A stretch of 64,000 bases of DNA from an uncultured Gammaproteobacteria bacterium (GCA_963748215.1 CAVVHS010000006.1:339259-403258); one strand, 5' to 3'. Counted from the first letter of the stretch, positions 2,615-37,283 are shown. The notes: generated by a model from the sequence alone, not told the origin. Program-made: numbers and translations.

Positions 2615-2929
2615 CTATTTGCCGGGCCTGATGTAATTGACATCATTCGGATTCAGGAAGATCAATTGCCAGCTGTCCGGTTCGATTTCCACGTAATCCA
2701 CCGTCATGCCGTCAACCAGGATCTGGCTGGATTCGCCTATGACGATATCGATGTCCTCGACACTGAGCCGGTGATCGCCATCCAGCCGGTTGTCGTCGAA
2801 TCCCAGGCCGTAGTGAATGCTGCCGTCCGGATCGCGGCGAGCGGCGATGCGCAGCGCAAGGCCTTGCATATTGCCCTCCGCTGCGGCGGCGCGGATCTGT
2901 TCGGCGGCAGCCGGGGTGATGGTAATCAT
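2615..2929 (-). CDS. dsrR: DsrR, IscA/HesB-like protein lacking the conserved cysteines
   Basis: 104 aa beginning MITITPAAAEQIR, a HesB/IscA fold signature, with no Cys residues. Sits after dsrN as in Allochromatium vinosum dsrNR. Confidence 0.7.
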   Translation of the reverse strand: MITITPAAAEQIRAAAAEGNMQGLALRIAARRDPDGSIHYGLGFDDNRLDGDHRLSVEDIDIVIGESSQILVDGMTVDYVEIEPDSWQLIFLNPNDVNYIRPGK

Positions 2930-2972: not shown

Positions 2973-4346
2973 TCATTTGCCGTGCCTGCGGGTGGCGCGT
3001 ACGAAGCCGACGAAGCGCCTGGCCCAATGGTGCTGACCGGTATCGCGCATGTGGCTGTAGCAGGCGACCAGATTGTTGAGGATCAGCCCGTCGTGCCGGC
3101 TGTCAATCCCGGTGCCACGCACCACCTCGTAGGCATAGTCGAGGCCGGGTGGAACGTTTTCAAGGCTGGAGTAGTGGAACTCGTGTGCGGCGATGACACC
3201 GTCCGGGTGTGGTGCCGGCCAGGGTGACTTGCCGGTCTCGAGCAGCCGGACGTAACCGCGACCCTGCGGTCGTTCGTGCATGACCACGTCGCCCGGTATG
3301 GCGCCGACCATGTCGCAGCGTGCGCCATTCCAGCTCAGGCTGCGTGCGAGGTACATCAGGCCGCCGCACTCGGCATAGACAGGCAGACCGTTTGCAATGG
3401 CGTCCCTGATCCGGGCCCGCAGGGCGCTGTTCGCCTGCAGTTCCTGCATGCGGCTTTCGGGGAAGCCGCCGCCGATGAACAGGCCGTCGATGTCCGGCAG
3501 CTGTGCGTCGCGCAGGGTATCGATCGGCACCAGCTCCGCGCCGGCGCGCTGCAGGGCATCGAGGTCGTCCGGGTAGTAGAAACCGAAGGCGGCATCGCGG
3601 GCAATGCCGATGCGAACCGTATCGCCGCCGGCTTGCGCAGGCGGTACGGGATCGAAGGCGAGCGGTGTATTACCCGCCACCGCGAGCACCCGGTCCAGGT
3701 TGACCTGGGCGGCGATCAGCCGGCTGATATGGTCGATCTTGCCGCGTGCCGCGTTATCCTCGTTGCTCGGTATCAGTCCGAGGTGGCGTTCGACGATCTC
3801 CAGCTCCGCGGCGCGGTGCACGCCGCCGAGCACCGTCAGGTCGGTGTAGTGTTCGATGACCGCCCGCAGCTTGGCCTCGTGACGGCTGCCGCCGAGCTGG
3901 TTGAGAATCACGCCGGCGATACTGACTCGGGGATCGAATGCCTGGTAGCCGAGGATCAGGGGCGCGATACCGCGCGTCATGCCGCGCGCATCGAGTACCA
4001 GCACCACCGGAGTCTGCGTCAGCGTGGCCAGTGCGGCATTGCTGTTGCTGCCGTCCAGGTCGAGGCCGTCATACAGGCCCTTGTTGCCCTCGATCAGCGC
4101 GATATCGGCATCGGCCGAATAATGACCGACCGCGGTGAGGATCTCCGCGTGGGTCATGCAATGGAAATCCAGGTTGTGGCAGGGTCGCCCGGCCGCCTGC
4201 CCGAGCCACATCGGGTCGATGTAGTCAGGTCCCTTCTTGAAGGGTTGTACGACGAGGCCGCGTGCCGCGAGCGCTGCACACAGACCGATAGTCACGGTGG
4301 TCTTGCCGGACGATTTATGGGCTGCCGAAATCAGCAGGCGGGACAT
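2973..4346 (-). CDS. dsrN: DsrN, cobyrinic acid a,c-diamide synthase (CbiA/CobB) homolog; siroheme amidase in dsr clusters
   Basis: 457 aa with the N-terminal P-loop ISAAHKSSGKTTV, a CbiA-family AAA domain and a C-terminal glutamine amidotransferase domain. Position between dsrP and dsrR. Confidence 0.8.
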   Translation of the reverse strand: MSRLLISAAHKSSGKTTVTIGLCAALAARGLVVQPFKKGPDYIDPMWLGQAAGRPCHNLDFHCMTHAEILTAVGHYSADADIALIEGNKGLYDGLDLDGSNSNAALATLTQTPVVLVLDARGMTRGIAPLILGYQAFDPRVSIAGVILNQLGGSRHEAKLRAVIEHYTDLTVLGGVHRAAELEIVERHLGLIPSNEDNAARGKIDHISRLIAAQVNLDRVLAVAGNTPLAFDPVPPAQAGGDTVRIGIARDAAFGFYYPDDLDALQRAGAELVPIDTLRDAQLPDIDGLFIGGGFPESRMQELQANSALRARIRDAIANGLPVYAECGGLMYLARSLSWNGARCDMVGAIPGDVVMHERPQGRGYVRLLETGKSPWPAPHPDGVIAAHEFHYSSLENVPPGLDYAYEVVRGTGIDSRHDGLILNNLVACYSHMRDTGQHHWARRFVGFVRATRRHGK

Positions 4347-4396: not shown

Positions 4397-5611
4397 TCAG
4401 GCAGCATCCGCGGCAGCGTGATGGGGATCCACCTGGTCGTCGGCCAGGCTGACCGGCAGGAAGCGCAGGACGCGTGTGCCCACCACGGTGGCGGCGAGTG
4501 CCAGCGCGACGCCGCCGATGCCGAGCATGAACTCGGGCAGGCTGGGTTTATAGCTCGCGACGACGCCATCAAAGAAGGAACTGCTTACCTCCTTGCCGGG
4601 GAACAGTTCCATCGGATAGGCCTGGCCGCCGATGATGATGACGTACATCTGGGCGAGTCCGCCAACGATGACCAGCAGGCAGGCAATGCCGATCCACAGC
4701 CGTGACTTGCCGGCCGGTCCGTACAGCAGGGCGAGTGGCAGCAGGCTGCCCAGGCCGATCTGCACAAACCAGAACAGTGTGGTGTAAATGCCGCCATCGA
4801 GCAGGATGAAACGTTCCACACCGTGGTTTTCCGTGATGTAGAGGTTGGTCAGGTGGTAGGCCAGTACGAAATACAGCACGCCGGCGATAAATACACCGAG
4901 CAGGTTTTTCAGGCGGAACAGGACGGCATCGCCGAGCGGGCGTTGCGACCAGTTGTACAGGCCCATCAGCACGAGGATGAAGATCGCCAGTCCGAACGAG
5001 AACGACATGACGATGAACATGGGCGCCATGATGGCGGCATCGTAGGCCTCGCGTGCAACGAGGAAGCCGAAGATGGAGCCGGTACCGGTGGTCAGGATCA
5101 GGCGCCAGATGAACGCAGACATGCCGGCGGGCCGGGTGAAGTCGTTCATCTTGCGCTCCATCATCATCCACAGGTACACGGCGACGATCGCCATGAAGCC
5201 GGTATAGAGCATGATGTTCCAGGCAAAGATGGACTTGAAGTTGTAATAGGTCATGGCCACGATCAGCCGGTCCGGATGACCGAGGTCGAGTACCAGCACG
5301 GCCAGGCCGCCGACCAGCAGGGTAATGGCGAGCAGGCCGGACAGGCGCGCGAGCGGCTTGTACAGGGTCTTGCCGAACACCGAGCTGATGGATGCGACAT
5401 TGAGTGCGCCGGAGGCGGCGACGATCAGGAACACGGCGAACACGTGCGGCGTGCCCCAGACGACCTGGTTGTTCATGCCGGTGACCCAGTGTCCGTTGTG
5501 TTCCATGTAATACGCGGCACCCAGGCCGGCAAGTACGAATACGCCGATCGCGGCAACCAGCATGTAGAACGGCCGGCCGCCATCGATTTCCCTGTAATCT
5601 AGTGGTTTCAT
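4397..5611 (-). CDS. dsrP: DsrP, NrfD/PsrC-like polytopic membrane subunit of the DsrMKJOP complex
   Basis: 404 aa, about 10 predicted TM helices, NrfD-like. Start overlaps the dsrO stop at 5611. Confidence 0.75.
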   Translation of the reverse strand: MKPLDYREIDGGRPFYMLVAAIGVFVLAGLGAAYYMEHNGHWVTGMNNQVVWGTPHVFAVFLIVAASGALNVASISSVFGKTLYKPLARLSGLLAITLLVGGLAVLVLDLGHPDRLIVAMTYYNFKSIFAWNIMLYTGFMAIVAVYLWMMMERKMNDFTRPAGMSAFIWRLILTTGTGSIFGFLVAREAYDAAIMAPMFIVMSFSFGLAIFILVLMGLYNWSQRPLGDAVLFRLKNLLGVFIAGVLYFVLAYHLTNLYITENHGVERFILLDGGIYTTLFWFVQIGLGSLLPLALLYGPAGKSRLWIGIACLLVIVGGLAQMYVIIIGGQAYPMELFPGKEVSSSFFDGVVASYKPSLPEFMLGIGGVALALAATVVGTRVLRFLPVSLADDQVDPHHAAADAA

Positions 5612-6357
5612 CAGATCCCCCGGTAACGTACGCCGGTATTAAGCTGCAAGTCGGCACGAATCTGCTGCGAACTGTGCTGCTTCAGTGCCCTGGAAATGTC
5701 GCTGGCCGGATCGTTCAGGTCGCCGAACACCATGGCATTATGGTTTTCGGCGGTGCAGGCCTCGACGCAGGCCGGTGTGCGGCCGCTGTCGACACGATGG
5801 ACACAGAAGTTACAGGACTCGACGGTGCCCTTGCCGCGTGGTGTGTCCGGCAACTGGTCTGTCAGGTCTTCGTGAATGAAGGAGCGGGCCTTGTACGGGC
5901 AGGCCATCATGCAGTAGCGACAGCCGATACAGATGTGCTTGTCGACCAGCACGATGCCATCGGCACGCTTGAACGAAGCGCCGGTCGGGCAGACATCCAC
6001 GCAGGGCGGATGCTCGCAGTGCTGGCACAGCAGGGGCAGTGTCTGGGCATGACCGGTCTGCTTGTCCTTGAGCTTGACCTTGCGTATCCATTGCGCGTCG
6101 GTTTCCGGCCGGTCGAAGCCGGTCAGGCCGTGTTCGTCATTGCAGGCCGTGACGCAGTCGTCACAGCCCTCGGCGCATTTGCCGGAGTCTATCAGCATGC
6201 CCCAGCGTACCGCACTGGTGACAGCCTCTTTGGCCGGTTTTGCATGACCGATTTCGTGCAGGAACAACCCCGGTACGACGGCCATGCCGGCCGCTGCCCT
6301 GGCAGTCCCGCTGAGGAAGCGGCGACGATAGGTGTCGATGCCTGTTTCTTCACTCAT
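5611..6357 (-). CDS. dsrO: DsrO, periplasmic (Tat) 4Fe-4S ferredoxin-like subunit
   Basis: Tat motif RRRFLSGTARAAAGMAV and multiple CxxCxxCxxxCP ferredoxin motifs. The track ORF extends to 6552; the likely real start is the Met of MSEETGIDTYRRRFL. Confidence 0.75.
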   Translation of the reverse strand: MSEETGIDTYRRRFLSGTARAAAGMAVVPGLFLHEIGHAKPAKEAVTSAVRWGMLIDSGKCAEGCDDCVTACNDEHGLTGFDRPETDAQWIRKVKLKDKQTGHAQTLPLLCQHCEHPPCVDVCPTGASFKRADGIVLVDKHICIGCRYCMMACPYKARSFIHEDLTDQLPDTPRGKGTVESCNFCVHRVDSGRTPACVEACTAENHNAMVFGDLNDPASDISRALKQHSSQQIRADLQLNTGVRYRGI

Positions 6358-6805
6358 GAGCAATACCCTCTCTGGCCATGACATGCGGCTGGTCGGTGCT
6401 GCCGGCAGACACGGTCTGGCGCTGGCCGGGTTTGACCGGCCGGTCTGCGTGACACTGGAAACAGTCGATATGCACTGCCGCGTAGCTGTGGCAGCTATTG
6501 CAGAAATGCTCCTCGCTGCTGACGCGGGGTGCGTCAGGCGCATCGCTGACATGGCATTTGATGCATTCCTTCAGGCTGTGGCGGCTGCCGCGAATGCCCT
6601 CGTGCACGGTTTCATCGCGCTCGTGCAGGATGTATTTCATGTGGTTCTTGCGCATGTCCGCGGTGGGTTCCACACAACCCTGGGCTTCGCTGAAGCGCGC
6701 CTGGGCCGCGGGTATCTCCGGGAGCAGGGAATCACCGGCCCGACCTGGCACTGCAAGGCCGGCGGTGATTGCCATTAGCAGGATGATGAGACTGTGTTTC
6801 AGCAT
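6350..6805 (-). CDS. dsrJ: DsrJ, triheme c-type cytochrome
   Basis: Three CxxCH motifs (CIKCH, CNSCH, CFQCH) after a signal peptide MLKHSLIILLMAITAGLAV. The track ORF is 5'-extended to 6976. Confidence 0.8.
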   Translation of the reverse strand: MLKHSLIILLMAITAGLAVPGRAGDSLLPEIPAAQARFSEAQGCVEPTADMRKNHMKYILHERDETVHEGIRGSRHSLKECIKCHVSDAPDAPRVSSEEHFCNSCHSYAAVHIDCFQCHADRPVKPGQRQTVSAGSTDQPHVMAREGIAHE

Positions 6806-6836: not shown

Positions 6837-8807
6837 TTAGTGATCGCCCATGGCCATATCGATATAGCCGGTGGGGCAGACGTCCGAGCAGATATGACAG
6901 CCGATGCACTTGTCATAGTCGGTATCGACGTAGCGGCCCATGGTCGCCTGGTCCTTCTTGACACGGAAGATGGCATCCTGCGGACAGTAGATCACGCAGT
7001 TGTCGCACTCGAAGCACATGCCGCAGCTCATGCAGCGCTCGGCCTCGCTGACGGCCTGCTCGGGAGTCAGGCCGATGCCGCGTTCCTCGAAATGCCCCAG
7101 CACTTCCTCGGCACTCGGCCCCTTGGCGGAACGCTTGTTGCGCGGGGTGAACGGGAAGTGGCCAAGGAACAGGCGATCGGAGGAAATGATTTCCGAGCTG
7201 GAGCGGTCCTCGTAGTTGTGAACCGCGAACTGGGCATGATCGGTACCACGCATGTCGCCCATTTCATCCGCCTTGAACGGGGCCGGCGCATGGTTGGTCT
7301 CCTGGAGTTTCTTGAGCAGCTCGAAGTGGTGCACGTCGACCTTCGGGCGCTTCTTCTGCTCTTTCTGCTTCAGGTAGTGATCGATGCTCTCGACGGCAAT
7401 GGAGGCCTGACCGATGGCGGTGGTCAGCAGGTGCGGACGGATGATATCGCCGGCGACGAAATGGCCCTTGCGGCCCGGGACCTGGTAGAAGGCATCGGCG
7501 TCGATCAGGCCGCGGCCGTTGTCCAGGGACTCGAGCCCCTGGGACAGGTCGCCGCCCTGGCCGATGGCGGAGACGATGAGATCGCATTCGACCTCGAATT
7601 CGGTGCCTTCAACCGGGTTCGGACGTCCGTCCTTCATCTCGCACTTGGCCATCTTCAGGGCGCAGGCGCGGCCTTCGTCATTGACTACGACTTCGATCGG
7701 CATGACACCGTTCAGGATCGTGACACCTTCGCGCAGCGCGTCCTCGACCTCGTGTTCGGTGGCGGTCATTTCCTCGCGTTCGAACAGCGAGGTCAGTGTC
7801 ACCTCGGCACCCTCGCGGGCGGCCGCAAAGGCCGAGTCATGTGCGACATATCCGCCAATGACCTGTTCCGGACGGACTTCCTTGTTGATCTTGCTGATCT
7901 TGCCGAGGCGGCGTGCGACGGACACGACGTCGATGGAGGTATCACCGCCACCCACGCAGACCACCTTGTCGGCGGTGACCTGCAGGGTGCCCTTGTTGAA
8001 GGCTTCCAGGAAGGCAACGCCGGACACGCAGTTGGGCGCGTCGCTGTTGGGTACCGGCAGTTTCCGGCCCGATCTTGCAACCCATGGCCCAGAGAATGGC
8101 GTCGAATTCCTTTTCGATCTGCTCGATGCTGATGTCCTTGCCGACGCGGGTATTCATGCGCAGTTCGATGTCGCCCATGTCGACGATGCGCTGGCATTCA
8201 TGGTTGAGCACGTCGCGCGGGGTACGGTAGCCGGGGATGCCGTAGCGCATCATGCCGCCGAGTTCCTCGTGATCGTCGAAGATGGTGCTGGCATGGCCGA
8301 TGACGGCGCAGCTGGTAGGCGGCTGCCATGCCGGCCGGGCCGCCGCCGATGATGGCGATCTTTTTGCCGGTGAGCTTGGCGCGCTGCCTCGAAGGTGAAT
8401 TTCTTCTCGAAGGCGGAGTCGCCGATGAACTGCTCGACGGCGTTGATACCGACGAAATCCTCGACATTGTTACGGTTGCAGCCGTCTTCACACGGCGCCG
8501 GGCAGACGCGGCCCATCATGGACGGGAACGGGTTGGCGTCGGTGGAGCGGCGGAACGCATATTCTTCCATGCTCATGTCACCGGTCGGCTTCTCGATGCC
8601 GCGCACGATCTGCAGCCAGCCACGGATGTCTTCGCCGGACGGGCAGCTGCCCTGGCAGGGCGGCGTGCGGTGCACATAGGTCGGGCACTTGTGGGACGTG
8701 TCTTCATTGAAGATGTCGTCACCGATACGCGAATAGGTGTAGTCGCCATCCTTGAACCGACGGAAAGAGAGCTTGTCTTTTGCCATGTCTTCTTTTGAAG
8801 TTGCCAT
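6837..8807 (-). pseudogene. dsrL: DsrL (NAD(P)H:acceptor oxidoreductase, GltD-like Fe-S flavoprotein); reading frame interrupted by >=3 frameshifts in this sequence
   Basis: DsrL-like pieces lie in four different minus-strand ORFs: 8250-8807 (MATSKEDMAKDKLSF...), 8198-8491 (LTGKKIAIIGGGPAGMAAAYQLRR), 7942-8253 (MMRYGIPGYRTPRDVLNHE...) and 6837-8027 (C-terminal ferredoxin domain CIGCHICSDVCP). Frame changes fall near 8400, 8310 and 8050. Total span is 657 codons, matching full-length DsrL. Confidence 0.75.
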
Positions 8808-8857
8808 GCCTGTTCTCCTGTTATCTGATCAGGTGTTACCTGAGCAAAACTCAAAAA

Positions 8858-10348
8858 TTACTGTTTGTTGCCGAGCACGATCGCGTTGCTGACCAGCTGG
8901 TGCACGCTGACGATGCTGTCCATCTTGAAGCCGTAGTAGGGCAGGACCTTGGCGAACTGGCTCTTGCAGATGGCACAGATTGCGGCCATGTGGGTCACGC
9001 CATGGTTTTCGACCACGTGCTTCAGGGCCTCCATGCGCGGCAGGGCGCCCTTGACGCGCAGTTCCATCAGGTCGTCGGTCAGCAGGCCGCCGCCACCGCC
9101 ACAGCAGAAGGTGGCGTCGTGGATGGTGTCCTGCGGCATGTCGTAAAAGTGATTGCAGCTGGCCTTGATCACCTCGCGCGGCATGATGAACTGCCCGCCC
9201 GGCATCGGCCCCATGCGCGAGGCACGGGCGACGTTGCAGGAGTCGTGATAGGTCAGCACCATATCGTCATTGGCCGACTTGTCCAGCGTGATCGCGTTGC
9301 GCTGGATCAGGTCATAGGTGAATTCCAGATGTGCTGCGGTACCGGGTATTTCGGATCGAGGAAATCGAACGGCCCGGCCAGGGTGTTCAGGAAGCTGTAG
9401 GCAACACGCCAGGCATGACCGCATTCACCGAAGACGATGCGCTTTACACCGAGATCGAGCGCGGCCTCGCGGATGCGCAGCGACACCTTGCGCATGTTCT
9501 CGTAGCTGCCGATGAACATGCCGAAGTTGGCGGCCTCGCTGGCATGCGAACTCAGCGTCCAGCTGATGCCGGCCTCGTGGAATACCTTGGCGTAGCCCAT
9601 CAGGCCGTCGACGTGCGGCTCGGCGAAGAAGTCCGCCGACGGGGTCACCAGCAGTATGTCGGCGCCTTTCTCGTCCAGCGGCAGGCGCACCTTGACGCCG
9701 GTGTCGTCCTCGACGTCCTCTTCCAGGCCTTCCAGGGTGTCTGCCAGGGCCGGTTCCGGCAGGCCGAGGTTGTTGCCGATCTTGTAGACCTTGCCGATGA
9801 TTTCGTTGCAGTACTTCTGGCCGACACCGACGGAATCCATGATCTCGCGCGCTGCCATGGAGATTTCGGCGGTGTCGATGCCGTAGGGGCAGAACACCGA
9901 GCAGCGCCGGCACTGCGAACACTGGTGGAAGTAGCTGTACCAGTCGTCCAGCACTTCCTTGGTCAGGTCGGTCGCGCCAACCAGCTTGGGAAAATACTTG
10001 CCGGCGAAGGTGAAGTAACGGCGATAGACCTTGCGCAACAGATCCTGGCGCGCAACCGGCATGTTTTTCGGATCGGTGGTGCCGAGGTAGTAGTGGCACT
10101 TGTCGGTGCAGGCGCCGCACTTGACGCAGGAGTCCAGGAATACCTGCAGCGAGCGGTATTTGCCGTAGCAGCTCTTCCATCTTGTCGATGGCGACCTGCT
10201 GCCAGTTGTCGACCAGCTCGCCCGGGAAGCCCAGCTGCTGCTGGAACTCTTCCTTCGCCACAAACGGCTTGCTGTGCGCCATCACCCCTTCGTGAAGGGT
10301 CGGGATGACGGGATATTCTTTCAGCTCCGGTACTTCGAAATCAGCCAC
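8858..10348 (-). pseudogene. dsrK: DsrK (HdrD-like catalytic subunit, CCG domains); frame interrupted by 2 frameshifts
   Basis: N-terminus MADFEVPELKEYPVIPTLHEG in ORF 9425-10348; the middle (CVKCGACTDKCHYY ... GECGHAWRVAYSFLNTLAG) in ORF 9307-10263; the C-terminus (HDSCNVARASRMG ... CCGGGGG ... CAICKSQF) in ORF 8858-9424. Near 10180 the sequence ctgctAcggcaaa looks like a 1-nt insertion that is not in a homopolymer. Confidence 0.75.
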
Positions 10349-10381
10349 GCTCTGCTCCTGGTACGATCGTTATGCCGGTGG

Positions 10382-11110
10382 TTATTTCTCGAGTTCTGCC
10401 GCCCACGGTGCCAGGTGGCGCTGTTCGCGCGGGTTGTCCACCTGGTTGCGCGTCGGGCTGAAGAATACACCCGGTGCATGCAGCAGTTTGCTGATCGGGA
10501 AGATGATCATCAGCGTGGCGACCAGCCCGAGATGCACCAGCAACAGCGGATCTTCGGGAATGGGCTGCCAGTTGAAATACATCAGGCCCAGGAAAAAGGC
10601 CTTGAGCGACACGATGTCGGTGTGCGAAATGTAATCCATGCTCAATCCGGTCAGTGCAATACCCATCAGCAGTGCCAGCATCAGGTGATCGGACAGGGCG
10701 GAGATATAGCGCACCCGGTCCACCAGCACGCGGCGCGCCCACAGGCCGGCCAGTCCGGCGACCATGGCGAAGGCGGCATACAGGCCGAACGGCTGGATGA
10801 GCTCGACCCAGGTCCAGACCGGGTTGGTGAAATAACGCAGGTGGCGTGCCAGCACCAGGAACATGCCGAAGTGAAACAGGTAGCCGAAAATCCAGATCCA
10901 CTTGTTGGAACGGAACAGGCTCTCGAAGAACGCCACTTCCCGGAACATGCGCAGCACGACGCCCTGGCGCGTGACCGGTGCCGGGGTGGTCGGAATCTTC
11001 AAGGGTGCCGGTGTTTTTGCATACTTGCTGATCCTGTAGGCCAGGCCGCCGATCAGCAGGGCGGTGGCAACATAGAACAGAAGTGCATACACAATGGTCC
11101 AGAACGGCAT
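10382..11110 (-). CDS. dsrM: DsrM, NarI-like dihaem cytochrome b membrane subunit
   Basis: 242 aa, five TM helices, conserved His ligands, NarI-like; intact. Confidence 0.8.
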   Translation of the reverse strand: MPFWTIVYALLFYVATALLIGGLAYRISKYAKTPAPLKIPTTPAPVTRQGVVLRMFREVAFFESLFRSNKWIWIFGYLFHFGMFLVLARHLRYFTNPVWTWVELIQPFGLYAAFAMVAGLAGLWARRVLVDRVRYISALSDHLMLALLMGIALTGLSMDYISHTDIVSLKAFFLGLMYFNWQPIPEDPLLLVHLGLVATLMIIFPISKLLHAPGVFFSPTRNQVDNPREQRHLAPWAAELEK

Positions 11111-11186
11111 GCTACCTGGCTCCTGTTAGGGTTGTAAGATTCAGAAGGGCTGCAGGGGATGTCCCCTGCAGCCTTCGGTTGTTGCG

Positions 11187-11522
11187 TCAGACGCAGCCGG
11201 TCGGCTTCGGCAGACCGGCGTACTTGCAGGCCTGCTTGGCGGGACCGTACGGGAACAGCTCGTACAGGTACTTGCTGTTGCCCTTGTCCTTGCCCAGCTT
11301 CTTGCCGATGGCCTTGGTCAGCACGCGAACGGCCGGGGCGATCTGGTATTCCTCGTAGTATTCACGCAGGAAATTGATCACTTCCCAGTGGTTCTCGGTC
11401 AGCTCACAGTCGTCGAGCTTGGCCATGACATCCGCCACGTCCTTGTCCCATGTATTCAGGTCAGCCAGGTAACCTTCTTCGTCAGTTTCGTAAGTCTTGC
11501 CGTTCGCTTCAATTGTACCCAT
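11187..11522 (-). CDS. dsrC: DsrC sulfur-carrier protein
   Basis: 111 aa ending ...PAKQACKYAGLPKPTGCV, with both conserved C-terminal-arm cysteines present; intact. Confidence 0.9.
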   Translation of the reverse strand: MGTIEANGKTYETDEEGYLADLNTWDKDVADVMAKLDDCELTENHWEVINFLREYYEEYQIAPAVRVLTKAIGKKLGKDKGNSKYLYELFPYGPAKQACKYAGLPKPTGCV

Positions 11523-11566
11523 GTGAGGTCTCCTCGTTGGATGACGCTAATCAAAAAAAATGAAAA

Positions 11567-11863
11567 TCAGAGCCAGGACTGTACCTTGTCGTTGGCTGTA
11601 ACCAGATCGACGAACCCGCCGTAATCGATGACGTCGACGCCATCCAGCAGCTTGTCTTCCGTGATGCCGCGCGCGGCCAGGTCCGGCCCGAGCACGGCGA
11701 CCTTGAGGCCTTTCAGCAGGCTTGCCGCCTTGCCGTTTTTCATCGCTCCGTAAATACCATCCTCGATGAGCAGCAACTGGTCGCCATCCTTCATGATGGT
11801 CGATGCCGTGTTCAGGCTGCCGGTGTCGTAGGGTGACTTGTTTACCAGGTGTAACATTGCCAT
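11567..11863 (-). CDS. dsrH: DsrH (TusB-like)
   Basis: 98 aa beginning MAMLHLVNKSPYDT, DsrH/TusB fold; position after dsrF. Confidence 0.75.
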   Translation of the reverse strand: MAMLHLVNKSPYDTGSLNTASTIMKDGDQLLLIEDGIYGAMKNGKAASLLKGLKVAVLGPDLAARGITEDKLLDGVDVIDYGGFVDLVTANDKVQSWL

Positions 11864-11881
11864 TATTCCGGGCTCCCTGTA

Positions 11882-12292
11882 CTAGAAGTTGAACAGCACG
11901 TCTTGCTCGGCGAGCACGTCTGCCATTTCCGCGCGTGTGACCAGGCGGATGGAATCCTTTTCCGCGTAGTCCTCGTCCTCGTCTTCCCAGACCAGGTGTT
12001 GCAGGTCATCCAGGGTCAGGCCGCGTTCCTCGAGGGATTCCTTCTCGACGTAGATCTTGTTGACCTCGTAGTCACCCAGCGCGGCGTAGGTGGGCGAGAA
12101 GTTTTTCATGCCGATGCCCGCGGTGTCCTGGCCCTTGACGAGCTGGTACACACCGTCGTCCAGGAAGGCCATGCTGACGTCCTGTTCGAAGGCGGCGCCG
12201 ATCAGTACCACTTCCAGCGATTCCCACGCATAGATCGTCCCGTAGGGCGCCCTGCGGTTGATGTACATCATTTTCTTGGATTCTTCAGACAT
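11882..12292 (-). CDS. dsrF: DsrF (TusC-like)
   Basis: 136 aa, DsrF/TusC family; position between dsrE and dsrH. Confidence 0.75.
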   Translation of the reverse strand: MSEESKKMMYINRRAPYGTIYAWESLEVVLIGAAFEQDVSMAFLDDGVYQLVKGQDTAGIGMKNFSPTYAALGDYEVNKIYVEKESLEERGLTLDDLQHLVWEDEDEDYAEKDSIRLVTRAEMADVLAEQDVLFNF

Positions 12293-12306
12293 TGCCGCTC
12301 TCCCGC

Positions 12307-12700
12307 TCAGTCGCCGAACACGACCAGTCGATCGCTCTGGACGCCACCTTCGATCAGCTGACCCAGTCCGGAAATGCGGAAGCCGGGGGCGATGTTGGTT
12401 GCGTCCTTGCCGTTACGCTGCGCCTCGCCCTCGTCGACGATGCCGCGCCGCTGGGCGGCAGCCACGCACACCACCATGTCGATGTTGTGTGCCTGTCCCA
12501 GTTCACTCCAGCGCTTGACGATATTGCGATCGTCCTGCGGCGGTGTGGTCAGGCGCGTGCCGTTGTTGACGCCGTCGTGGTAGAAAAAGATACGAAAGAT
12601 CTCGTGTCCCTTTTCCAATGGCCGCCTTGGCGAAAAAGTAGGCCGTGTCCGCGGCCTGGTGCTGGTAGGGCCCCTCGTTAACCTGGATTGTAAGCTTCAT
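12307..12700 (-). pseudogene. dsrE: DsrE (TusD-like sulfurtransferase); 1 frameshift
   Basis: N-terminus MKLTIQVNEGPYQHQAADTAYFFAKAAI is in ORF 12503-12700; the rest (EKGHEIFRIFFYHDGVNN ... CVAAAQRRG ... RLVVFGD) is in ORF 12307-12618. At the junction attgGaaaaggg reads as a 1-nt insertion. Confidence 0.75.
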
Positions 12701-12715
12701 TCACATACCCTCTGA

Positions 12716-13793
12716 TCAGAAACGGATATGGGTTGAAGCGTTCAGGCTTGCACGGGCACCACGCCAGTTGTCGATGTGGTACTTGGTGAACGGCAGCCCG
12801 GTCTTCTCGAAGAAACGCGGCCAGCCGATACGCTCGATCCAGTCGTTGATACGCTCCCAGTCCTTGGCGTCTTCCTTGTAGACCTTGAGGATCTTCTTGA
12901 CGACGGCGGTGGCTTCCGGCCAGCGCGGCGGGTTGTTCGGGATGCCGGAGGCGACCAGCTTCTGGAAGGTCGGCTTGCCGCGGGCATTGGAGTGGTTGCC
13001 GCCCACCCAGATGGCCAGCTTGGAGTGCTCGGCGTCGTTGATCTGCATCGGCGGGCAGGGCGGGTAAGCAGGCACCGCAGCAGATGCACTTCTTCTCGTC
13101 GACTTCCAGCGACGGCTTGCCGTTGACCAGTGCCGGGCGAATGGCCGCGACCGGGCAGCGTGCCACGACCGACGGACGCTCGCAGACGTTGGACAACCAG
13201 GTCGTGGTTGATCTTCGGCGGCTTGGTGTGCTGCACGTTGATGGCGATGTCGCCCTGGCCGCCGCAGTTGATCTGGCAGCAGGAGGTGGTCATGTGCACG
13301 CGGTTCGGCATGTTCGCAGCCTTTGAACTCGTCGATCAGCTCGTCCATCATCGACTTGACCACGCCGGAGGCGTCGGTGCCCGGGATGTCGCAGTGCAGC
13401 CAGCCCTGGGTGTGCGACATCATGGCGACGGAGTTGCTGGGTACCGCCGACGACGAAGCCGGCATCTGTCAGCGCCTTGATCAGCGGCTCGACCTTGGCC
13501 TCGTCGGACACCATGTATTCGATGTTGCTGCGAATGGTGAAGCGCACATAACCCTCGCCGTAGGTGTCACCGATTTCGCACAGCTTGCGCAGGGTGAACA
13601 GGTCGAGGATACGCTGGGTGCCGGCGCGCACGGTCCAGATCTTGTCGCCATTGTTGGCAACGTGCAGCAGGACGCCGGGCTGCGGATCTTCGTGATAGGC
13701 CCACTGCCCGTAGTTCTTGCGCATTACCGGGTGCATGTACTGGAATCCGTCAGGACATCCGGATTCGATCGGCGAACGCATTTCTTGTGCCAT
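12716..13793 (-). pseudogene. dsrB: DsrB, dissimilatory sulfite reductase beta subunit; >=4 frameshifts
   Basis: DsrB segments alternate between three minus-strand frames: 13290-13793 (N-terminus), 12716-13465 (SNSVAMMSHTQGWLHCDIPGTDASG, and again the C-terminus INDAEHSKLAIWVGGNHSN...), 12742-13311 (MTTSCCQINCGGQGDIAINVQHTKPPKI) and 12678-13196 (VDEKKCICCGAC). Shift points fall near 13440, 13320, 13200 and 13055. Confidence 0.8.
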
Positions 13794-13880
13794 GTGATTC
13801 TCCTGAAAATCTCTTCAAGTTTTTGAACAAATCCCGGCGTTTGTACGCCGGGGTTGTCATATATGAACGGGTTGACCGGC

Positions 13881-15147
13881 TTACGCGGAGGCAGCCTGCT
13901 CCTCGGCCTTGCGCTCGAACCACTTCTCGGCTTCTTCGTCCCAGCCGTCCATGCGGACGTAGGAAGACTGGCGCGGGTTGCTGACCATGTTCGGGTCCAC
14001 CTCGACGCCGATGCCTTCGAGGAAGTTGACCAGACCGATACGCTCGATCATTTCACCGCAGCGCTCGTGCTCCAGGCCGTTCTCGGCCCAGAAGTCGATG
14101 ATCTCCTCGGCCATTTCACTGCAGGCTTTCGTAGTCTTCCTCGGTTTCCAGCTTCTTGAACGGGACCACCACGGTACCCATCAGGTCGCCGATCTTCAGC
14201 GTGCGCTTGCCGCCGATCAGGATGGTGACGCCCTTGTCGTCGCCCGGGTGCAGCGCCTTCGGCATGACGTTCAGGCAGTGCATGCAGCGCACGCAGTTCG
14301 TGGTTGTCGACGGTCGATGGTGTCGTCGTCGTTCAGGGTCAGGGCCTTGGTCGGGCAGCGGGTGATGACGTTGTCGATCACGTACTGACGGCCTTTCTTG
14401 CCGACGTAGTCCTTGACTTCTTCCTGGTCGACCTTCATGTCGTCGCGCCAGGTGCCGATGACGGCGAAGTCGGCGCGCTCGATGGCGTTCTGGCAGTCAT
14501 TCGGGCAACCGGAGACCTTGAACTTGAACTTGTAGGGCAGGGCCGGACGGTGCACGTCGTCGGTGAAGTTGTTCACCAGCCAGCGCTGGATGCCGTGCTC
14601 GTTGGCAGCAGGACATTTCGCAGCGCGCCGCACCGACACAGGACATGGCGGTACGCACGCACGGGCCGGCACCACCGAGATCCCAGCCGTACTCGTTGAT
14701 TTCGTCGAAGAAGTGCTGGGTGTTTTCGGTGGTGGTACCGATAAACATGATGTTGCCGGTCTGGCCGTGGAAGGTCACCAGGCCGGAACCCCATTTTTCC
14801 CAGCTGTCGCCGAGCTGGCGCAGCATGTCGGTGGTGTAGTAGTTGCCGGCCGGCGGCTGCACGCGCAGGGTGTGGAATTCCTTCGATTCCGGGAAGGCCT
14901 TGCCGACTTCGGAGAAGCGCGGGATGATGCCGCCGCCATAGCCGTAGACACAGACGGTGCCGCCTTTCCAGTAACCCTTGCGGGTTTCGTAGGAGTGCTC
15001 GAGCTGACCCAGCAAACCGTTGGTGACGTCGTTGATGCGTTCGTCCGGGTGCTCGTCACGCAGCCGCTTGATGCCGGTGATGAAGCTCGGCCAGGGGCCG
15101 TTCTCGAGTTCGTCCAGCATGGGAGTCGGGTAGGTGTTCTTGGCCAT
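13881..15147 (-). pseudogene. dsrA: DsrA, dissimilatory sulfite reductase alpha subunit; >=3 frameshifts
   Basis: N-terminus in ORF 14497-15147 (MAKNTYPTPMLDELENGPW ... SCVGAARCE), the middle in ORF 14271-14675 (KFKFKVSGCPNDCQNAIERADFAVIGTW), the C-terminus in ORF 13881-14114 (IIDFWAENGLEHERCGEMIERIGL). Total span 422 codons, matching full-length DsrA. Confidence 0.85.
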
Positions 15148-15507
15148 GGCAATAATCTCCTGGATTGTTTTCTACACCAATTGGTTTGCTACTGATGACA
15201 GCGCGCGCTGTCGCCCTGCCGGGCAACTGGAAATCAGCGAGTTATACGGAATTACAACAGCGTAACTCTCAGTTGAGCGCATTGTAGAAAGGCTCTGCGG
15301 GTATACATATCCTACCCTTGGGGTGGCGCCTATATGGGCCCGTATCCCGAACGGGGTATTGGCAGAATATTGATTTAATTTCCGGTAGTTATCAGAGTTG
15401 CCCGGATTTACTAATGCGTACAGAACTTTTTCTTATATTAACGCGCACTTAAGTAACCCTTTCTCAACCGGAGAAACGGGATTGCCGGTGTGATTTCAGC
15501 TATTTAG

Positions 15508-15524
15508 ATGAGAATCACTCTCAT
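15508..15524. promoter_or_regulatory. Perfect 6-5-6 inverted repeat ATGAGA-N5-TCTCAT in the divergent dsrA / dioxygenase promoter region
   Basis: Read directly from the sequence in the AT-rich 480-bp intergenic region between dsrA (15147, -) and the 15633 (+) gene. Confidence 0.25.
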
Positions 15525-15632
15525 TAGCAATTGGCCGCCGGCAGCGCAGGCAAGTCCCGGCCCCATGTATTAAACATTTAAGTGTGACCGTAAGATACAG
15601 GCTCCTGAAAAACCGGCCCGTCGCACAACTCC

Positions 15633-16577
15633 ATGATACACAGTCCAGACAGCTTTCGACCCTTTGACCTTGCCGGCGATGCCGACTACCGGGTCTGGCG
15701 CGCGTGGAAGCTGGATGGCTACCCCGTGGCCGCCGCCGACCTGATTGTGGACGTCGGCGATCCGGCGCACCTGTCAGCGGCCGAGCATGCGGCGATCCTG
15801 GCGCGCTGCCGCAAGGCCAATATGGCGATTTATGCCGTCCGGGGTGGTGGTAGCGCGGACAAGGAGGCGGTGCGCGCACTGGGCAGGCAGTTCGGGCTGG
15901 AACGTCTGGACATGAACCTGCGCGCCGACGAGGACAGCATCACCGCGTTGCGGGTGGTACCGGAATCGGCGGGGACCCGTTACATCCCCTACACCAACCG
16001 GCCGCTGAACTGGCATACCGACGGTTACTACAACACGCTCGACGAACAGGTGCGGGCCATCCTGATGCACTGCGTGTCCGCCGCGGCCAGCGGCGGCGAG
16101 AGTGTGCTGTTCGATCACGAACTCGCCTACCTGTTGCTGCGTGACGAGAATCCGGATTACATTCGCGCGCTCATGCAGCCGGACGCCATGACCATCCCGG
16201 CCAACATAGAGGACGGCCGGCAGATCCGCGGCGCGCAATCCGGTCCGGTCTTTACGGTTGAAAAGGGTAGCAACGCCCTCCATATGCGTTATACGGCACG
16301 CACCCGCAGTATCGAGTGGAAGGACGACCGGGACGTGCGCAATGCCATCGAATTCCTGCGTGAATTGCTGGACAGCGACCTGCCCTGGATCTTCCGGCAC
16401 CGGCTGCAGGCCGGACAGGGCATTATCTGCAATAATGTACTGCACAGGCGCGATGCCTTTGACGACGCGGCGGGTGACGGACAGGCCCGGCTGCTGTACC
16501 GGGCGCGTTATCACGACCGGATCCGCGCGACCGTCGCCGACAATGATTTTTATGGAGACAGGCAATGCTGTGGTTGA
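15633..16577 (+). CDS. TauD/TfdA-family Fe(II)/2-oxoglutarate-dependent dioxygenase-like protein
   Basis: 314 aa with a His-x-Asp motif in NWHTDGYYN and overall TauD-like spacing; divergent from dsrA. Confidence 0.6.
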   Translation: MIHSPDSFRPFDLAGDADYRVWRAWKLDGYPVAAADLIVDVGDPAHLSAAEHAAILARCRKANMAIYAVRGGGSADKEAVRALGRQFGLERLDMNLRADEDSITALRVVPESAGTRYIPYTNRPLNWHTDGYYNTLDEQVRAILMHCVSAAASGGESVLFDHELAYLLLRDENPDYIRALMQPDAMTIPANIEDGRQIRGAQSGPVFTVEKGSNALHMRYTARTRSIEWKDDRDVRNAIEFLRELLDSDLPWIFRHRLQAGQGIICNNVLHRRDAFDDAAGDGQARLLYRARYHDRIRATVADNDFYGDRQCCG

Positions 16578-16756
16578 GCGAAGTGCTGATACAGCAGCAT
16601 GACATCGAGTCCTTCGAGGCCCTGAAGCAGGCCATCAGCGCGCGTGCGCGCGGCGGCGAGATCCATTTCCGCATGGATGTGCGTCCGCCGTTTCCCGATA
16701 CACCCGAAGACTGGGAAGACCGGCTGGAAGCGGCCTTCTACTCGACAGGCAATTAA
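16565..16756 (+). CDS. Small hypothetical protein (63 aa), translationally coupled
   Basis: Start overlaps the preceding stop by 13 nt and the next gene starts 13 nt after its stop; coding-like codon usage. Confidence 0.35.
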   Translation: MLWLSEVLIQQHDIESFEALKQAISARARGGEIHFRMDVRPPFPDTPEDWEDRLEAAFYSTGN

Positions 16757-16768
16757 CCCCGGCGGTCA

Positions 16769-17467
16769 ATGACAAGCATGTTCTGGAACGACGAAAAGCA
16801 GAAAGCACCGGACTTCGTGATCCCGGATGACGTCGTCGACCTGGCGTTCAGGATCGGCTGCCCGACACTGCCGCTGGATCACGCCCATGCCCTGTCGCGA
16901 GCCCTGCTCGAGGTCCTGCCCTGGCTGGATGACGAGCCGCATGCCGGCGTCCACCTGATTCACGGTGCCGCCTCCGGTAACGGCTGGTATCGCCCCGAGG
17001 ATGCCGCCAGCGAGCTGCTGCACCTGTCGCGGCGTACCCGCATGCGCCTGCGTGTGCCCAGGCATCGCCTGGAGGATGCGCGCAAGCTGACCGGCCGGCG
17101 GCTCGATATCGGCGGCCATCCGCTCGAAGTCGGCGACTCGGAGGTTTTCCTGCTGAGCAGCCTGTCGACGCTGTTCTCGCGCTACGTCATGACCGGGGCC
17201 GACACCGATGAACAGGCCTTCCTGGAGGAGGCCACGCGTGGGCTGCAGGCCATCGATATCGATTGCCGCAAAATGCTGGGGGGCATCAGCCATGCTCTGC
17301 AGTTCCCGGACGGACCGGTACACACCCGCAGCCTGATGGTGGCGGATCTCGAGCCGGAGCAGTCGGTGCGACTGCAGCAGCTCGGACTGGGCGAGGGGCG
17401 CAGCATCGGCTGCGGCCTGTTCCTGCCGCACAAGGGCATCAAGCCGGTCAACGACGCAAAGGAATAG
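16769..17467 (+). CDS. Hypothetical protein with a Cas6f(Csy4)-like Gly-rich C-terminal motif (EGRSIGCGLFLPHKGIKP)
   Basis: 232 aa. The C-terminus resembles the Csy4 G-rich loop (EGGFTCYGLSKGGFVP) and the N-terminus DLAFRIGCPTLPLDHAHAL resembles DIRLRPDPEFPPAQL. There is no CRISPR array or other cas gene in the window, and the family assignment is not verified. Confidence 0.45.
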   Translation: MTSMFWNDEKQKAPDFVIPDDVVDLAFRIGCPTLPLDHAHALSRALLEVLPWLDDEPHAGVHLIHGAASGNGWYRPEDAASELLHLSRRTRMRLRVPRHRLEDARKLTGRRLDIGGHPLEVGDSEVFLLSSLSTLFSRYVMTGADTDEQAFLEEATRGLQAIDIDCRKMLGGISHALQFPDGPVHTRSLMVADLEPEQSVRLQQLGLGEGRSIGCGLFLPHKGIKPVNDAKE

Positions 17468-18187: not shown

Positions 18188-18532
18188 TCAGTACCCGCCC
18201 TTGCGCAGGATGAATGGCAGACCGGCGATCCGGTTACCCTGCTTGCTGGGGGCGAAGGGGAACAGTTCAAAGAGTTCCTTGCTGCTGACTTTCTTGTCCC
18301 AGATCTTGGCCATGCTCTTGTTGATCACCCGCTCCATGGGCTGTGAGCCGTTGTTATCGAAGTATTCCGAGCGCAGGTAATTCAGTACATCGAAATGCGC
18401 CTCGGTCAGCTCGATACCTTCCTTGGCGGCCAGTGCTTTCGCAACATCCTCATCCCAGGCGGTCGGGTCGGTGAGATTGCCGTTCTCATCCAGTTCGATG
18501 CTCTTGCCGTTTACGTCCAGTGCCATTTTCAT
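18188..18532 (-). CDS. DsrC/TusE-family paralog lacking both conserved cysteines
   Basis: 114 aa: MKMALDVNGKSIELDENGNLTDPTAWDEDVAKALAAKEGIELTEAHFDVLNYLR... aligns with DsrC along its length, but the C-terminus is SKQGNRIAGLPFILRKGGY rather than AKQACKYAGLPKPTGCV. Confidence 0.7.
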   Translation of the reverse strand: MKMALDVNGKSIELDENGNLTDPTAWDEDVAKALAAKEGIELTEAHFDVLNYLRSEYFDNNGSQPMERVINKSMAKIWDKKVSSKELFELFPFAPSKQGNRIAGLPFILRKGGY

Positions 18533-24567: not shown

Positions 24568-24762
24568 CTATTTTTTCCACTCGCCGAAGTTGTCGGCGTT
24601 GTGCGCCTTGCCGTCTTCGTAGCCGGCGGAGTAGGCGTCGGTGACACGCTGCTCTTCACGCTCCGGGTTCAGCAGGTAACCGCCCTGCCAGCCCTGGATG
24701 TAATCCGGGTCGACGCCATTTTCTTCCATCTTGGTGACTGCGTTGTAGTATTCCTGGTTCAT
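24568..24762 (-). CDS. Small hypothetical protein (64 aa)
   Basis: ORF ending at the bidirectional terminator. Confidence 0.35.
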   Translation of the reverse strand: MNQEYYNAVTKMEENGVDPDYIQGWQGGYLLNPEREEQRVTDAYSAGYEDGKAHNADNFGEWKK

Positions 24763-24820
24763 CGTTGCTTCCTCGTCTCGGTCTATGTTTGGGTTGAAAG
24801 GGTTGCCGCCGCGCGCCTGT

Positions 24821-25951
24821 TCAGCCGCGTGCCGCCGTAAAGTGTGACAGTGCTGCCCCCGAATCGATTGCCGCTGCTACCGCTGCCGCCGCGTCCTCGA
24901 GGGTGGCGTGGCGGCGCAGGTGATGCAGCATGATGGCGGCGCCGTAGACCAGGCTGTCACGTGCCGCGCCCGGTATTCCCTGCAGTGCGGACAGGCCGGC
25001 CGCTGCCGCAGCCTGCGCCGCTGCCGCGCTGTCGAATGCTGCTGTGTCACTGCCTTCGATGGTGTCCGGTGCATTGTCCTGCGGGAGCGGGACAGTGCGG
25101 GTCTGCTGCACGATACCGATCATTTCGGGGTGTACTTCCTGCGGGTATTCCGCGCCGCCGTCATGATAGCAGAATACCAATGCCGGTTGTTTCAGCGAGG
25201 GAATGACGCCGCCCTCGACGCCGCGAATGATGGCCGCCGAGGCGAAGCCGGCGTGGCGCGCCAGCTGCGCATAGACCGGCGGATAGGCCTTGTGCACATA
25301 GCCGGTCATCAGATGGGTACGTGCGGCACCGCGCACCGGTCCGGTCAGCGTTTCGACCGTGGTCAGGACCGGTCGCTTCACGATGCGGGTGCGCAGCGGG
25401 ATCAGGTCATGCAGGCGGGGCGCGGAGTGCTTCTGGTCCACGTAGCCCCAGCCGATGGCGGGGTCGGCGATCCGGGCGGCAGCCTGTTGCGGGGAGAGGT
25501 CGACCTCGACGCCGGCGGCACGCAGTACCTTGCGGTGCGTGACGCCATACTTCGGGCCGACGGCTTCCAGGCCGTGCGTGACGGCCGGTACACCGCAGGC
25601 GGCAAATACAGCCGGCAGGAAGGGCGACATCGGCAGTCCACGCGTGTAACCGTCATAGGGATCGGCCACGTCGATGAGTTCGTCGACGGCGGCGGTGACC
25701 GGGTTCATGGTGTCGAGAATGGCCTGCAGTACGCCGGCGTTCTCCGCGTCGGTCTCGCGCTTCATGCGCAGGGCGATCAGCAGCACGGCCGCCTGAACCG
25801 GATCCGATTTTCCTTCCAGGATGTGACGCATGGCGGCATAGGCCTCATCGAAGGGCAGGTCCTTGCTGAACTCCGGGCCGGTCGCCACCTTCTGGATGCA
25901 GCTACGCATCAACAGGTCGGTGTCGCTCCCGCTTATCATCCGTGCCGCCAT
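24821..25951 (-). CDS. TrpD2/YbiB-family protein (anthranilate phosphoribosyltransferase-like, glycosyl transferase family 3 fold)
   Basis: 376 aa with TrpD-like N-terminal helical and alpha/beta domains. Not in a trp operon context. Confidence 0.65.
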   Translation of the reverse strand: MAARMISGSDTDLLMRSCIQKVATGPEFSKDLPFDEAYAAMRHILEGKSDPVQAAVLLIALRMKRETDAENAGVLQAILDTMNPVTAAVDELIDVADPYDGYTRGLPMSPFLPAVFAACGVPAVTHGLEAVGPKYGVTHRKVLRAAGVEVDLSPQQAAARIADPAIGWGYVDQKHSAPRLHDLIPLRTRIVKRPVLTTVETLTGPVRGAARTHLMTGYVHKAYPPVYAQLARHAGFASAAIIRGVEGGVIPSLKQPALVFCYHDGGAEYPQEVHPEMIGIVQQTRTVPLPQDNAPDTIEGSDTAAFDSAAAAQAAAAAGLSALQGIPGAARDSLVYGAAIMLHHLRRHATLEDAAAAVAAAIDSGAALSHFTAARG

Positions 25952-26193
25952 AATACTTCGCTAGCTTGTTGTTTCAATTGGATTTACAGTCGAGTCGAGG
26001 AGTATACAGGAGGGTAAATTGACCCCGTATATCCCGATGGAGAGAGTAATGGCAGTCCTGAGTTGCGTTGTATCCATATGAAAATCGTAGACATTCTCTC
26101 TTTAGAGGTATTCGATACCGAGCTGCGAATGACTAGCATAGACACTCTCTCATCCCGGTGCGTCCGGGAAATCCACGACCCAAGAGGCAGTGC

Positions 26194-26628
26194 ATGGCAG
26201 ACGAGCTGAACAGTTCCGACTATAGCAGTGGAGTGGCCGCATTCGAGGCCAAGAATTTTTCCCAGGCGATGCGGCTGCTGTCGCCGCTGGCGGATGCCGG
26301 CGATGCCGATGCGCAGCACCGCGTGGCGATCATGTGCCAGAACGGTCTCGGCATGGTGCGTAACGAACTCCGCGCCTACAAGATGATGAAGGCCGCTGCC
26401 GAGCAGGGTTACGCGATCGCCCAGCACGGTCTCGGCTTCATGTACCTGGAGGGCGAGTGCGTCGAGCAGGACAGTGCCAGGGCGGCCGAGTGGTTTCGCA
26501 AGGCGGCCGACCAGGGGCTGGCGGGTTCGCTCACGACCCTGGCCCTGATGTACGAACAGGGTAACGGTGTCGAGAAAGACCCGGATGAGGCGAAGCGGCT
26601 CTATGCCAGGGCCGGGTTTGACCTCTGA
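26194..26628 (+). CDS. Sel1-like (TPR-like) repeat protein
   Basis: Repeated AQxxLGxMYxxGxGVxxDxxxAxxWxxKAA Sel1 motifs. Confidence 0.6.
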   Translation: MADELNSSDYSSGVAAFEAKNFSQAMRLLSPLADAGDADAQHRVAIMCQNGLGMVRNELRAYKMMKAAAEQGYAIAQHGLGFMYLEGECVEQDSARAAEWFRKAADQGLAGSLTTLALMYEQGNGVEKDPDEAKRLYARAGFDL

Positions 26629-26637
26629 CGCGGCCGC

Positions 26638-27792: not shown

Positions 27793-27810
27793 TCAACAAG
27801 GGAATGCCAG

Positions 27811-28071
27811 ATGGTAGATATACGTATGTACTGCACCGCCTTTTGTCCCTATTGCGTGCGTGCGGAGATGTTGCTCAAGTCAAAGGGCGTGATGGATATC
27901 GACAAGATCTTCATCGACAACATGCCGGACGGGTTCCAGGAACTGTCCAGGCTGACCGGGCGCAGGACGGTGCCGCAGATCTACATCGGCGAGCAGCATA
28001 TCGGTGGCTATGATGATCTCGCCGCGCTGGACAAGCGTGGCGGGCTGGATCCGCTGCTGGCGACGGACTGA
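27811..28071 (+). CDS. grxC: Glutaredoxin (Grx3-type, CPYC active site)
   Basis: YCTAFCPYC ... TVPQIYIGEQHIGGYDDL. Confidence 0.8.
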   Translation: MVDIRMYCTAFCPYCVRAEMLLKSKGVMDIDKIFIDNMPDGFQELSRLTGRRTVPQIYIGEQHIGGYDDLAALDKRGGLDPLLATD

Positions 28072-37282: not shown

Positions 37283-37283
37283 A

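Follow-up and report, generated by a model that had tools for sequence, protein, structure and literature searches.

Fourteen Frameshifting Indels in the dsr Operon of an Uncultured Gammaproteobacterium: Very Probably a Mixed-Haplotype Consensus Artifact

A 64,000-nucleotide (nt) stretch of DNA from an uncultured gammaproteobacterium (GCA_963748215.1 CAVVHS010000006.1:339259-403258; hereafter, the window) carries a complete oxidative-type dsr cluster on its minus strand, in the order dsrABEFHCMKLJOPN and followed by a small Fe-S_biosyn gene. Five of the cluster's genes (dsrA, dsrB, dsrE, dsrK, and dsrL) are split across reading frames by single-base insertions and deletions (indels). Here, we report a comparison of this locus with related loci and contigs, from which we conclude with high confidence that the 14 indels are an artifact of a consensus computed over mixed haplotypes of a conserved operon, not gene loss. 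The organism is predicted to be a sulfur-oxidizing gammaproteobacterium, as yet uncultured, whose dsr operon is of the oxidative type, ordinary, and functional.

The dsr cluster and its single-base indels

Coordinates refer to the plus strand of the window, ranges mark ambiguous placement of the extra base, and L-numbers denote related loci or contigs fetched for comparison. The cluster comprises the following genes, with indels placed by nucleotide alignment to intact relatives.

dsrA, 13881..15147 (start 15147), minus strand: dissimilatory-type sulfite reductase alpha subunit; four insertions, at 14605-14608, 14315, 14296-14299, and 14118
dsrB, 12716..13793, minus strand: beta subunit; four insertions, at 13438, 13316, 13194-13196, and 13065-13068
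dsrE, 12307..12700, minus strand: one insertion, at 12616
dsrF, 11882-12292, minus strand: intact single open reading frame (ORF) with an NCBIfam TusC/DsrF match
dsrH, 11567-11863, minus strand: intact single ORF with an NCBIfam TusB/DsrH match
dsrC, 11187-11522, minus strand: intact single ORF with an NCBIfam DsrC match
dsrM, 10382-11110, minus strand: intact single ORF with an NCBIfam DsrM match below the curated cut-off
dsrK, 8858..10348, minus strand: one insertion (10166-10169) and one deletion (9328)
dsrL, 6837..8807, minus strand: three insertions, at 8379-8381, 8301, and 8073
dsrJ, 6350-6805, minus strand: intact, 151 amino acids (aa)
dsrO, 5611-6357, minus strand: intact, 248 aa
dsrP, 4397-5611, minus strand: intact, 404 aa
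dsrN, 2973-4346, minus strand: intact, 457 aa
Fe-S_biosyn (dsrR-like) gene, 2615-2929, minus strand: intact, 104 aa

Lengths of the last five products equal those of the gene calls in two contigs of the same species (L082 and L083), in which precomputed Pfam matches on the same gene order include NrfD (DsrP) and Fer4_11 (DsrO). As for membership in the rDsr type, dsrEFH and dsrL adjoin dsrAB, dsrC and dsrMKJOP lie in the cluster, and the (corrected) DsrA, DsrB, DsrE, DsrF, DsrH, DsrC, DsrK, and DsrL products score above the NCBIfam cut-offs, unlike DsrM (175.6 bits against the NCBIfam DsrM model; cut-off, 300).

Frame changes were located by six-frame translation and by tblastn with intact homologues. 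A DsrM-based scan of species-representative genomes yielded 80 related loci, with L001, L005-L007, L009, and L026 aligned in detail; relative to these, the window-unique coding differences were 14 single-base indels (13 insertions and 1 deletion). Each of the five affected genes passes between minus-strand frames without in-frame stops, and tblastn agrees. Undoing the 14 edits (13 bases taken out, 1 put in) gives five stop-free proteins, each of which spans a curated NCBIfam model from end to end at a score above its cut-off, namely, DsrA (420 aa; TIGR02064, 652 bits against a cut-off of 393, model positions 1-402 of 402), DsrB (357 aa; TIGR02066, 538 bits against a cut-off of 341.5, positions 1-341 of 341), DsrE (130 aa; TIGR03012 [TusD/DsrE], positions 1-127 of 127), DsrK (496 aa; NF045796 DsrK, 626 bits), and DsrL (655 aa; NF009410, a DsrL-type NAD(P)-binding model, positions 5-565 of 566). 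The nearest named database proteins to corrected DsrA come from metagenome-assembled genomes (MAGs) of Gammaproteobacteria, Thiohalobacterales, and Thiotrichales. No cluster representative in the protein database is more than 92% identical to corrected DsrA, a ceiling that reflects the listing of 90%-identity cluster representatives. Against the same-species contigs described below, the protein is 94.3% identical.

Confinement of the indels was assessed by scanning the whole window with a seven-state Viterbi model (six coding frames plus non-coding; codon usage trained on the window). Its frame junctions fall at or near the dsr events, so the scan is sensitive to events of this kind, and no clear frameshift was found by it in the other ~57 kb, where same-strand frame changes coincide with stop codons of the upstream gene apart from two weak candidates (~56016 and ~58210). 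Both were rejected, because translation shows ordinary gene ends (of comEC and of lpxK/ycaR) and the genes are exactly as long as their counterparts in L091 and L092. Comparison with same-species contigs, covering 1187-22000, 24700-30317, and 46813-64000, likewise gave no coding frameshift outside dsr. Under a uniform rate, the probability of all 14 events falling within 6.5 of the 64 kb is ~1e-14. An extra non-coding base at 15453, upstream of dsrA, is seen relative to L081, L082, L085, and L087, with no gap there against L102 and L103; judged from these alignments, it is probably real strain variation.

These results bear out, wherever it could be checked, the observation in a preliminary description made from the sequence alone, which had reported frameshifts in dsrA, dsrB, dsrE, dsrK, and dsrL only (at least three in dsrA, where we count four), none in the neighboring dsr and other genes, full-size proteins lacking in-frame stops, and a clustering that no uniform error rate could explain. 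Its mention of frame-restoring indel pairs did not hold, as 13 of the 14 events are +1 insertions.

The same description had placed some events outside homopolymers, and this proved general: 6840-15147 has 47 homopolymer runs of ≥4 nt, and all of them are free of indels. Among 3- to 5-mers within 4 nt of the sites, none showed enrichment that would survive multiple testing, and an apparent CTGC pattern was rejected as not enriched (2 sites, P = 0.18). Ordinary long-read error without haplotype mixing, whether random or systematic (low coverage, homopolymer miscalls, or methylation-motif miscalls), fits poorly with this picture: homopolymers are spared, the motif search lends no support to methylation-motif miscalls, and the contig that holds 14 events in 6.5 kb holds none in the remaining ~57 kb.

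Contigs of the same strain and species

Same-species contigs were found by exact-sequence look-up of the window DsrC, and further look-ups (ExbD, glutaredoxin, the upstream TauD-family gene, and DsrF) led to contigs of the NCBI MAG GCA_049667585.1 and to Logan assemblies of several runs. Outside dsr, the contigs of GCA_049667585.1 and Logan (including L093-L101) match the window at 99.92 to 100% identity with zero gaps: L097 is 99.947% identical over 24700-30317 (5,618 nt), L092 is 99.921% identical over 55338-59136 (3,799 nt), three contigs of 1.5 to 1.8 kb are 100% identical, and L102 has zero mismatches over 15103-17435. Judged by nucleotide identity, these contigs are the window's own strain outside dsr.

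Within the operon, the dsr contig of GCA_049667585.1 (L083; window 12850-3867) is only 99.09% identical to the window, and dsrE, dsrK, and dsrL are single full-length ORFs in it at all six of the frameshift sites that it overlaps. The 496-aa dsrK product is also intact in L082, L084, and L086, the 655-aa dsrL product is intact in L082 and L084, and the dsrE insertion at 12616 is absent both from L083 and from a Logan contig (L105). At the species level, L082, a 661-kb contig 94.9% identical to the window, has every dsr gene intact, as do seven shorter contigs of 95 to 99% identity (L083-L089; MEGAHIT-style ENA assemblies, Logan, JGI, and two NCBI MAGs); comparison of the dsr operon found no coding indels in L083-L089 or in L082. 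A 271-kb contig from another ENA assembly (L081; 97% identical) has dsrA, dsrK, and dsrL fragmented and is considered separately below. Reads restoring single ORFs had been proposed beforehand as the sign of an assembly artifact; here, short-read contigs of the same population serve as the proxy, and they do so at every covered site.

Same-strain short-read contigs stop ~190 nt into dsrA (L102 and L103 end at ~14955) or do not begin until the 3' end of dsrB (L083, at 12850). As short-read assembly graphs stop where several similar haplotypes coexist, these breaks at dsrA/dsrB suggest that several dsrAB haplotypes may be present together in those samples.

Under genuine, very recent inactivation, all 14 frameshifts would be true mutations of the strain, or of a sub-population within it, and the catalytic rDsr genes would be lost. 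In favor of such a history, the deposited sequence does contain the indels, which avoid homopolymers, unlike classical long-read errors, and two of which recur in L081. Set against it are the intact same-strain ORFs just described and the implausibility of thirteen +1 insertions arising without nonsense or missense decay. A test for pseudogenes (stops, missense decay, and a ratio of nonsynonymous to synonymous polymorphism [pN/pS] near 1) gave no such sign in the corrected frames: corrected DsrA differs by 1 singleton at near-invariant columns (mean among 120 homologues, 0.68), and pN/pS of the corrected genes against relatives is 0.06 to 0.22, like that of intact neighbors. The missing substitution decay remarked on in the preliminary description is thereby borne out with numbers. 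Together with the nature of the inserted bases and the position at which mismatches begin (both given below), this makes inactivation very unlikely indeed.

Programmed recoding, in which real frameshifts would be bypassed by ribosomal frameshifting or transcriptional slippage, finds its sole support in downstream frames that are open and conserved. No conserved slippery or homopolymeric shift site was found at the indels, and, except for the two in common with L081, none of the sites recurs in ~100 related loci. Fourteen events in five genes would be without precedent, and the intact orthologues in same-strain short-read contigs in effect refute the idea, the likelihood of which we put at next to nil.

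Allele union and mosaic substitutions

The identity of each inserted base was compared with codon alignments of 50 to 70 relatives per gene, counting an allele if it occurred in ≥10% of relatives at the adjacent column. For 12 of the 13 insertions, the added base equals an alternative allele of the adjacent column (null mean, 4.4), a count reached in 0 of 20,000 random-insertion simulations (P < 5e-5), and entropy of the flanking columns at the insertion sites is 1.55 versus 1.02. Explicit pairs of parent haplotypes were found at 14299, 13194, 13065-13068, 8379, and 8301. At 14299, the species haplotype reads CAC-GAA-TGC and L001 reads CAC-AAC-TGC, while the window reads CAC-GAAC-TGC; at 13194, GTG and GTT appear as GTTG; at 13068, TGT and TGC appear as TGCT; at 8379, C and G appear as CG; and at 8301, A (L083) and C (L081 and L082) appear as CA. 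Such a union of alleles is expected from a consensus over a two-haplotype pile-up, because clustered single-nucleotide polymorphisms (SNPs) can align as an insertion plus a deletion; it is predicted by a mixed-haplotype consensus and not by mutation, which counts against inactivation. Random long-read error would not be expected to produce either this allele match or the substitution excess that accompanies it.

That excess is local. Within dsr, the window and L083 differ by 74 mismatches over the 8,550 nt compared, a density 13.7 times that outside (Fisher P = 1e-17). Alleles present in other relatives account for 57 of the 74, and in 6 the allele is common only to L001, a different species. 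In the part covered by L083, all six indels lie in 500-nt bins that are <99% identical to it (6/6, P = 0.005); bins of 99.2 to 100% identity hold none, among them the bins of 11800-10801 (100% identical), and no indels occur from 7800 downward, where bins are 98.6 to 100% identical.

At the other end of the operon, the window departs from its own strain almost as soon as dsrA begins. After 2.3 kb of identity, the first ~190 nt of dsrA contain 11 differences from same-strain L102 and L103, with the mismatch excess starting within ~45 nt of the dsrA start codon, which likewise counts against inactivation. At most of these 11 positions, the window allele recurs in other relatives, several times only in L001, L026, or L005. 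Identity between the window and its own strain is 94.4% in this part of dsrA, and L001 is closer to the window than to the strain.

L001-type alleles account for the insertions at 14605, 14299, 13194, and 10166 and for 6 private mismatches. As the sole second parent, L001 was rejected, since 6 insertions would be left without explanation; another population must therefore be involved.

A mechanism that would join these features is as follows. The consensus over the dsr operon would have been computed from reads of the window's own strain together with those of at least one more divergent relative, most likely in a long-read metagenome assembly made without phasing, by Flye and a neural polisher, as for the closest relatives. 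At haplotype differences, and especially at clustered SNPs, the alignment would render a mismatch as a paired insertion and deletion, and both alleles would be kept in tandem, adding one base and shifting the frame. Between such sites, the consensus would switch haplotypes, leaving patches with ~1.5 to 2% mismatch to the true strain. L001 is ~86 to 92% identical over the dsr operon, with a value of ~87% across its length, and its similarity drops and fragments outside. The strict localization would follow because the operon is the part of the neighborhood that stays this similar to L001, so that alleles of other lineages are recruited there; beyond it, the other population would be too different to be recruited, and the contig would be clean. 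The lean of the preliminary description toward a localized consensus artifact from strain-heterogeneous dsr genes thus gains support from the short-read ORFs, the allele union, and the mismatch excess.

Shared indels, long-read assemblies, and known systems

L081 (ENA ERZ25039603 contig_15234), an independent long-read-style contig, has 9 private 1-nt insertions and 1 deletion elsewhere in the same operon, and its public record lists dsrA, dsrK, and dsrL as fragmented genes. Its indels in the operon and surroundings lie at window-equivalent positions 14904, 12705, 11562, 11177, 11139, 10038, 9008, 8853, 8775, 7119, and 4389, with further ones in the neighboring region at 20847, 20166, and 20138. 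Several of its insertions are also allele unions (for example, G/C to CG at 14904), and one stretch near 8775 is L001-like. L081 is thus a second, separate case of the pattern, and it speaks for an artifact in the window.

More broadly, split-frame dsr genes were found in 7 of 12 long-read-type loci versus 2 of 81 others (P = 3e-6), with long-read type judged by contig names (MFD Nanopore bins and ENA "contig_N" records) and with a tblastn split-frame counter that is crude (it finds 3 of the 14 events in the window and under-counts close events) and was used for presence or absence only. Among long-read MAG loci of related species, isolated split-frame genes occur in L007 (dsrA), L005 (dsrK), L021 (dsrL, two events), and L027, L006, and L001 (dsrN); the two loci of other type are L035 (dsrA) and L004 (dsrK and dsrN, with Ns in the dsrK span). 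MFD bins are Nanopore-only assemblies made with metaFlye and one round of Medaka, without short-read polishing (PMC12313526), and the window's closest relatives with MFD bin names come from that workflow. Isolated frameshifts of this sort, the higher frequency of frameshift errors reported for Nanopore soil assemblies (PMC13087279), and the chance that the deletion at 9328 reflects under-calling of the CC in ATCCTGG (as the haplotype reads in L005) would all sit well with ordinary long-read error. Given the confinement, the spared homopolymers, and the allele match, we hold that explanation to be very unlikely.

Several points weigh against a mixed-haplotype consensus, and all but the fourth account for the small residual doubt that we retain. 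First, we infer the mixing from its footprint rather than from a read pile-up, as we do the platform, the pipeline, and the exact mixing step (graph collapse or polishing) behind the window. Second, dsrA and dsrB, with 8 of the 14 events, are spanned only by same-species contigs (95 to 96% identical, all intact), not by one of the same strain. Third, the second population is in question at six insertions (14315, 14118, 13438, 13316, 12616, and 8073), where the inserted base matches only the alleles of more distant relatives and no allele match occurs among the same-species contigs or L001. Fourth, no indels occur in dsrC, dsrM, or the 3' 1.2 kb of dsrL, although these stretches are conserved too.

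Fifth, the insertion at 13065-13068 (dsrB) and the deletion at 9328 (dsrK) are identical in the window and L081; purely stochastic error would not predict this, and the recurrence is the least well explained detail of the data. The shared indels might be real, marking a natural sub-lineage of the sulfur oxidizer with truly frameshifted dsrB and dsrK that are tolerated or bypassed, a proposal to which we give very little credence. Downstream of them, in the original frame, synonymous differences outnumber nonsynonymous ones, 11 to 5 for the window versus L081 and 24 to 1 for L081 versus L082; the codons past both indels are still under purifying selection, which also speaks against inactivation. 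They are better explained as the same haplotype pair giving the same deterministic error; for 9328, the under-called CC is a possible alternative. A more mundane variant is that the shared indels stem from a recurrent basecalling or polishing error tied to sequence context, which would merit characterization.

If the indels are an artifact of mixed haplotypes, they have no biological consequence, and the operon is an ordinary, intact oxidative one. Annotation taken at face value would nevertheless score DsrAB, DsrE, DsrK, and DsrL as missing, and the organism, a sulfur oxidizer, would wrongly appear to lack Dsr or to bear pseudogenes. The window would also exemplify a less familiar class of long-read metagenome error, in which non-homopolymer +1 insertions of tandem alleles arise in a conserved operon that recruits the reads of a related population. 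The combination of an inserted base equal to a neighbor-column allele, a local mismatch excess, and clean flanks could serve as a read-free flag for such regions.

Other features of the window, the first three of which are kept in L081 and L082, are listed below.

15633-16577, plus strand: TauD-family dioxygenase gene upstream of dsrA
16769-17467, plus strand: ORF of 232 aa, upstream of dsrA, with a precomputed Pfam Cas6 match (PF09559), an odd match given that it stands without CRISPR context
18188-18532, minus strand: second DsrC/TusE-like gene, upstream of dsrA
37001-38000: stretch with 46% GC versus ~61% elsewhere, at the 5' part of a 602-aa ORF (37325-39133) beside gltX; by composition, it may be foreign or atypical sequence
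42448-42980: tRNA-Ala and tRNA-Glu, then a tandem pair of RtT-like elements (RF00391, 61 bits each; 42675-42811 and 42844-42980) within a 1.5-kb stretch called non-coding by the codon model

The oxidative-type cluster dsrABEFHCMKLJOPNR is described in Allochromatium vinosum, a gammaproteobacterial sulfur oxidizer. The window shares with it the order dsrA-B-E-F-H-C-M-K-L-J-O-P-N plus the small Fe-S_biosyn gene, and once the 14 indels are removed, no functional difference is predicted; the window's organism differs in belonging to an uncultured lineage.

Frameshift artifacts known from Nanopore metagenomes (measured with IDEEL and addressed by short-read or reference-guided polishing; PMC9262707, PMC13087279, and bioRxiv https://doi.org/10.1101/2021.08.23.457338) are likewise 1-nt indels that split conserved genes, and here, too, short-read contigs of the same organisms lack the indels that long-read-style contigs carry. 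The textbook form consists of homopolymer indels spread genome-wide, whereas the window has 13 insertions among 14 events, none in runs of ≥4 nt, all in one operon and with alleles in tandem. Collapsed strain-level or inter-genome repeats are the other close parallel, as the window likewise shows mismatch patches with the alleles of other lineages and short-read breaks at dsrA/dsrB. The usual examples of such collapse are rRNA operons, transposases, and strain-level variation; in the window, it would concern a 10-kb metabolic operon that is ~86 to 92% identical between co-occurring species.

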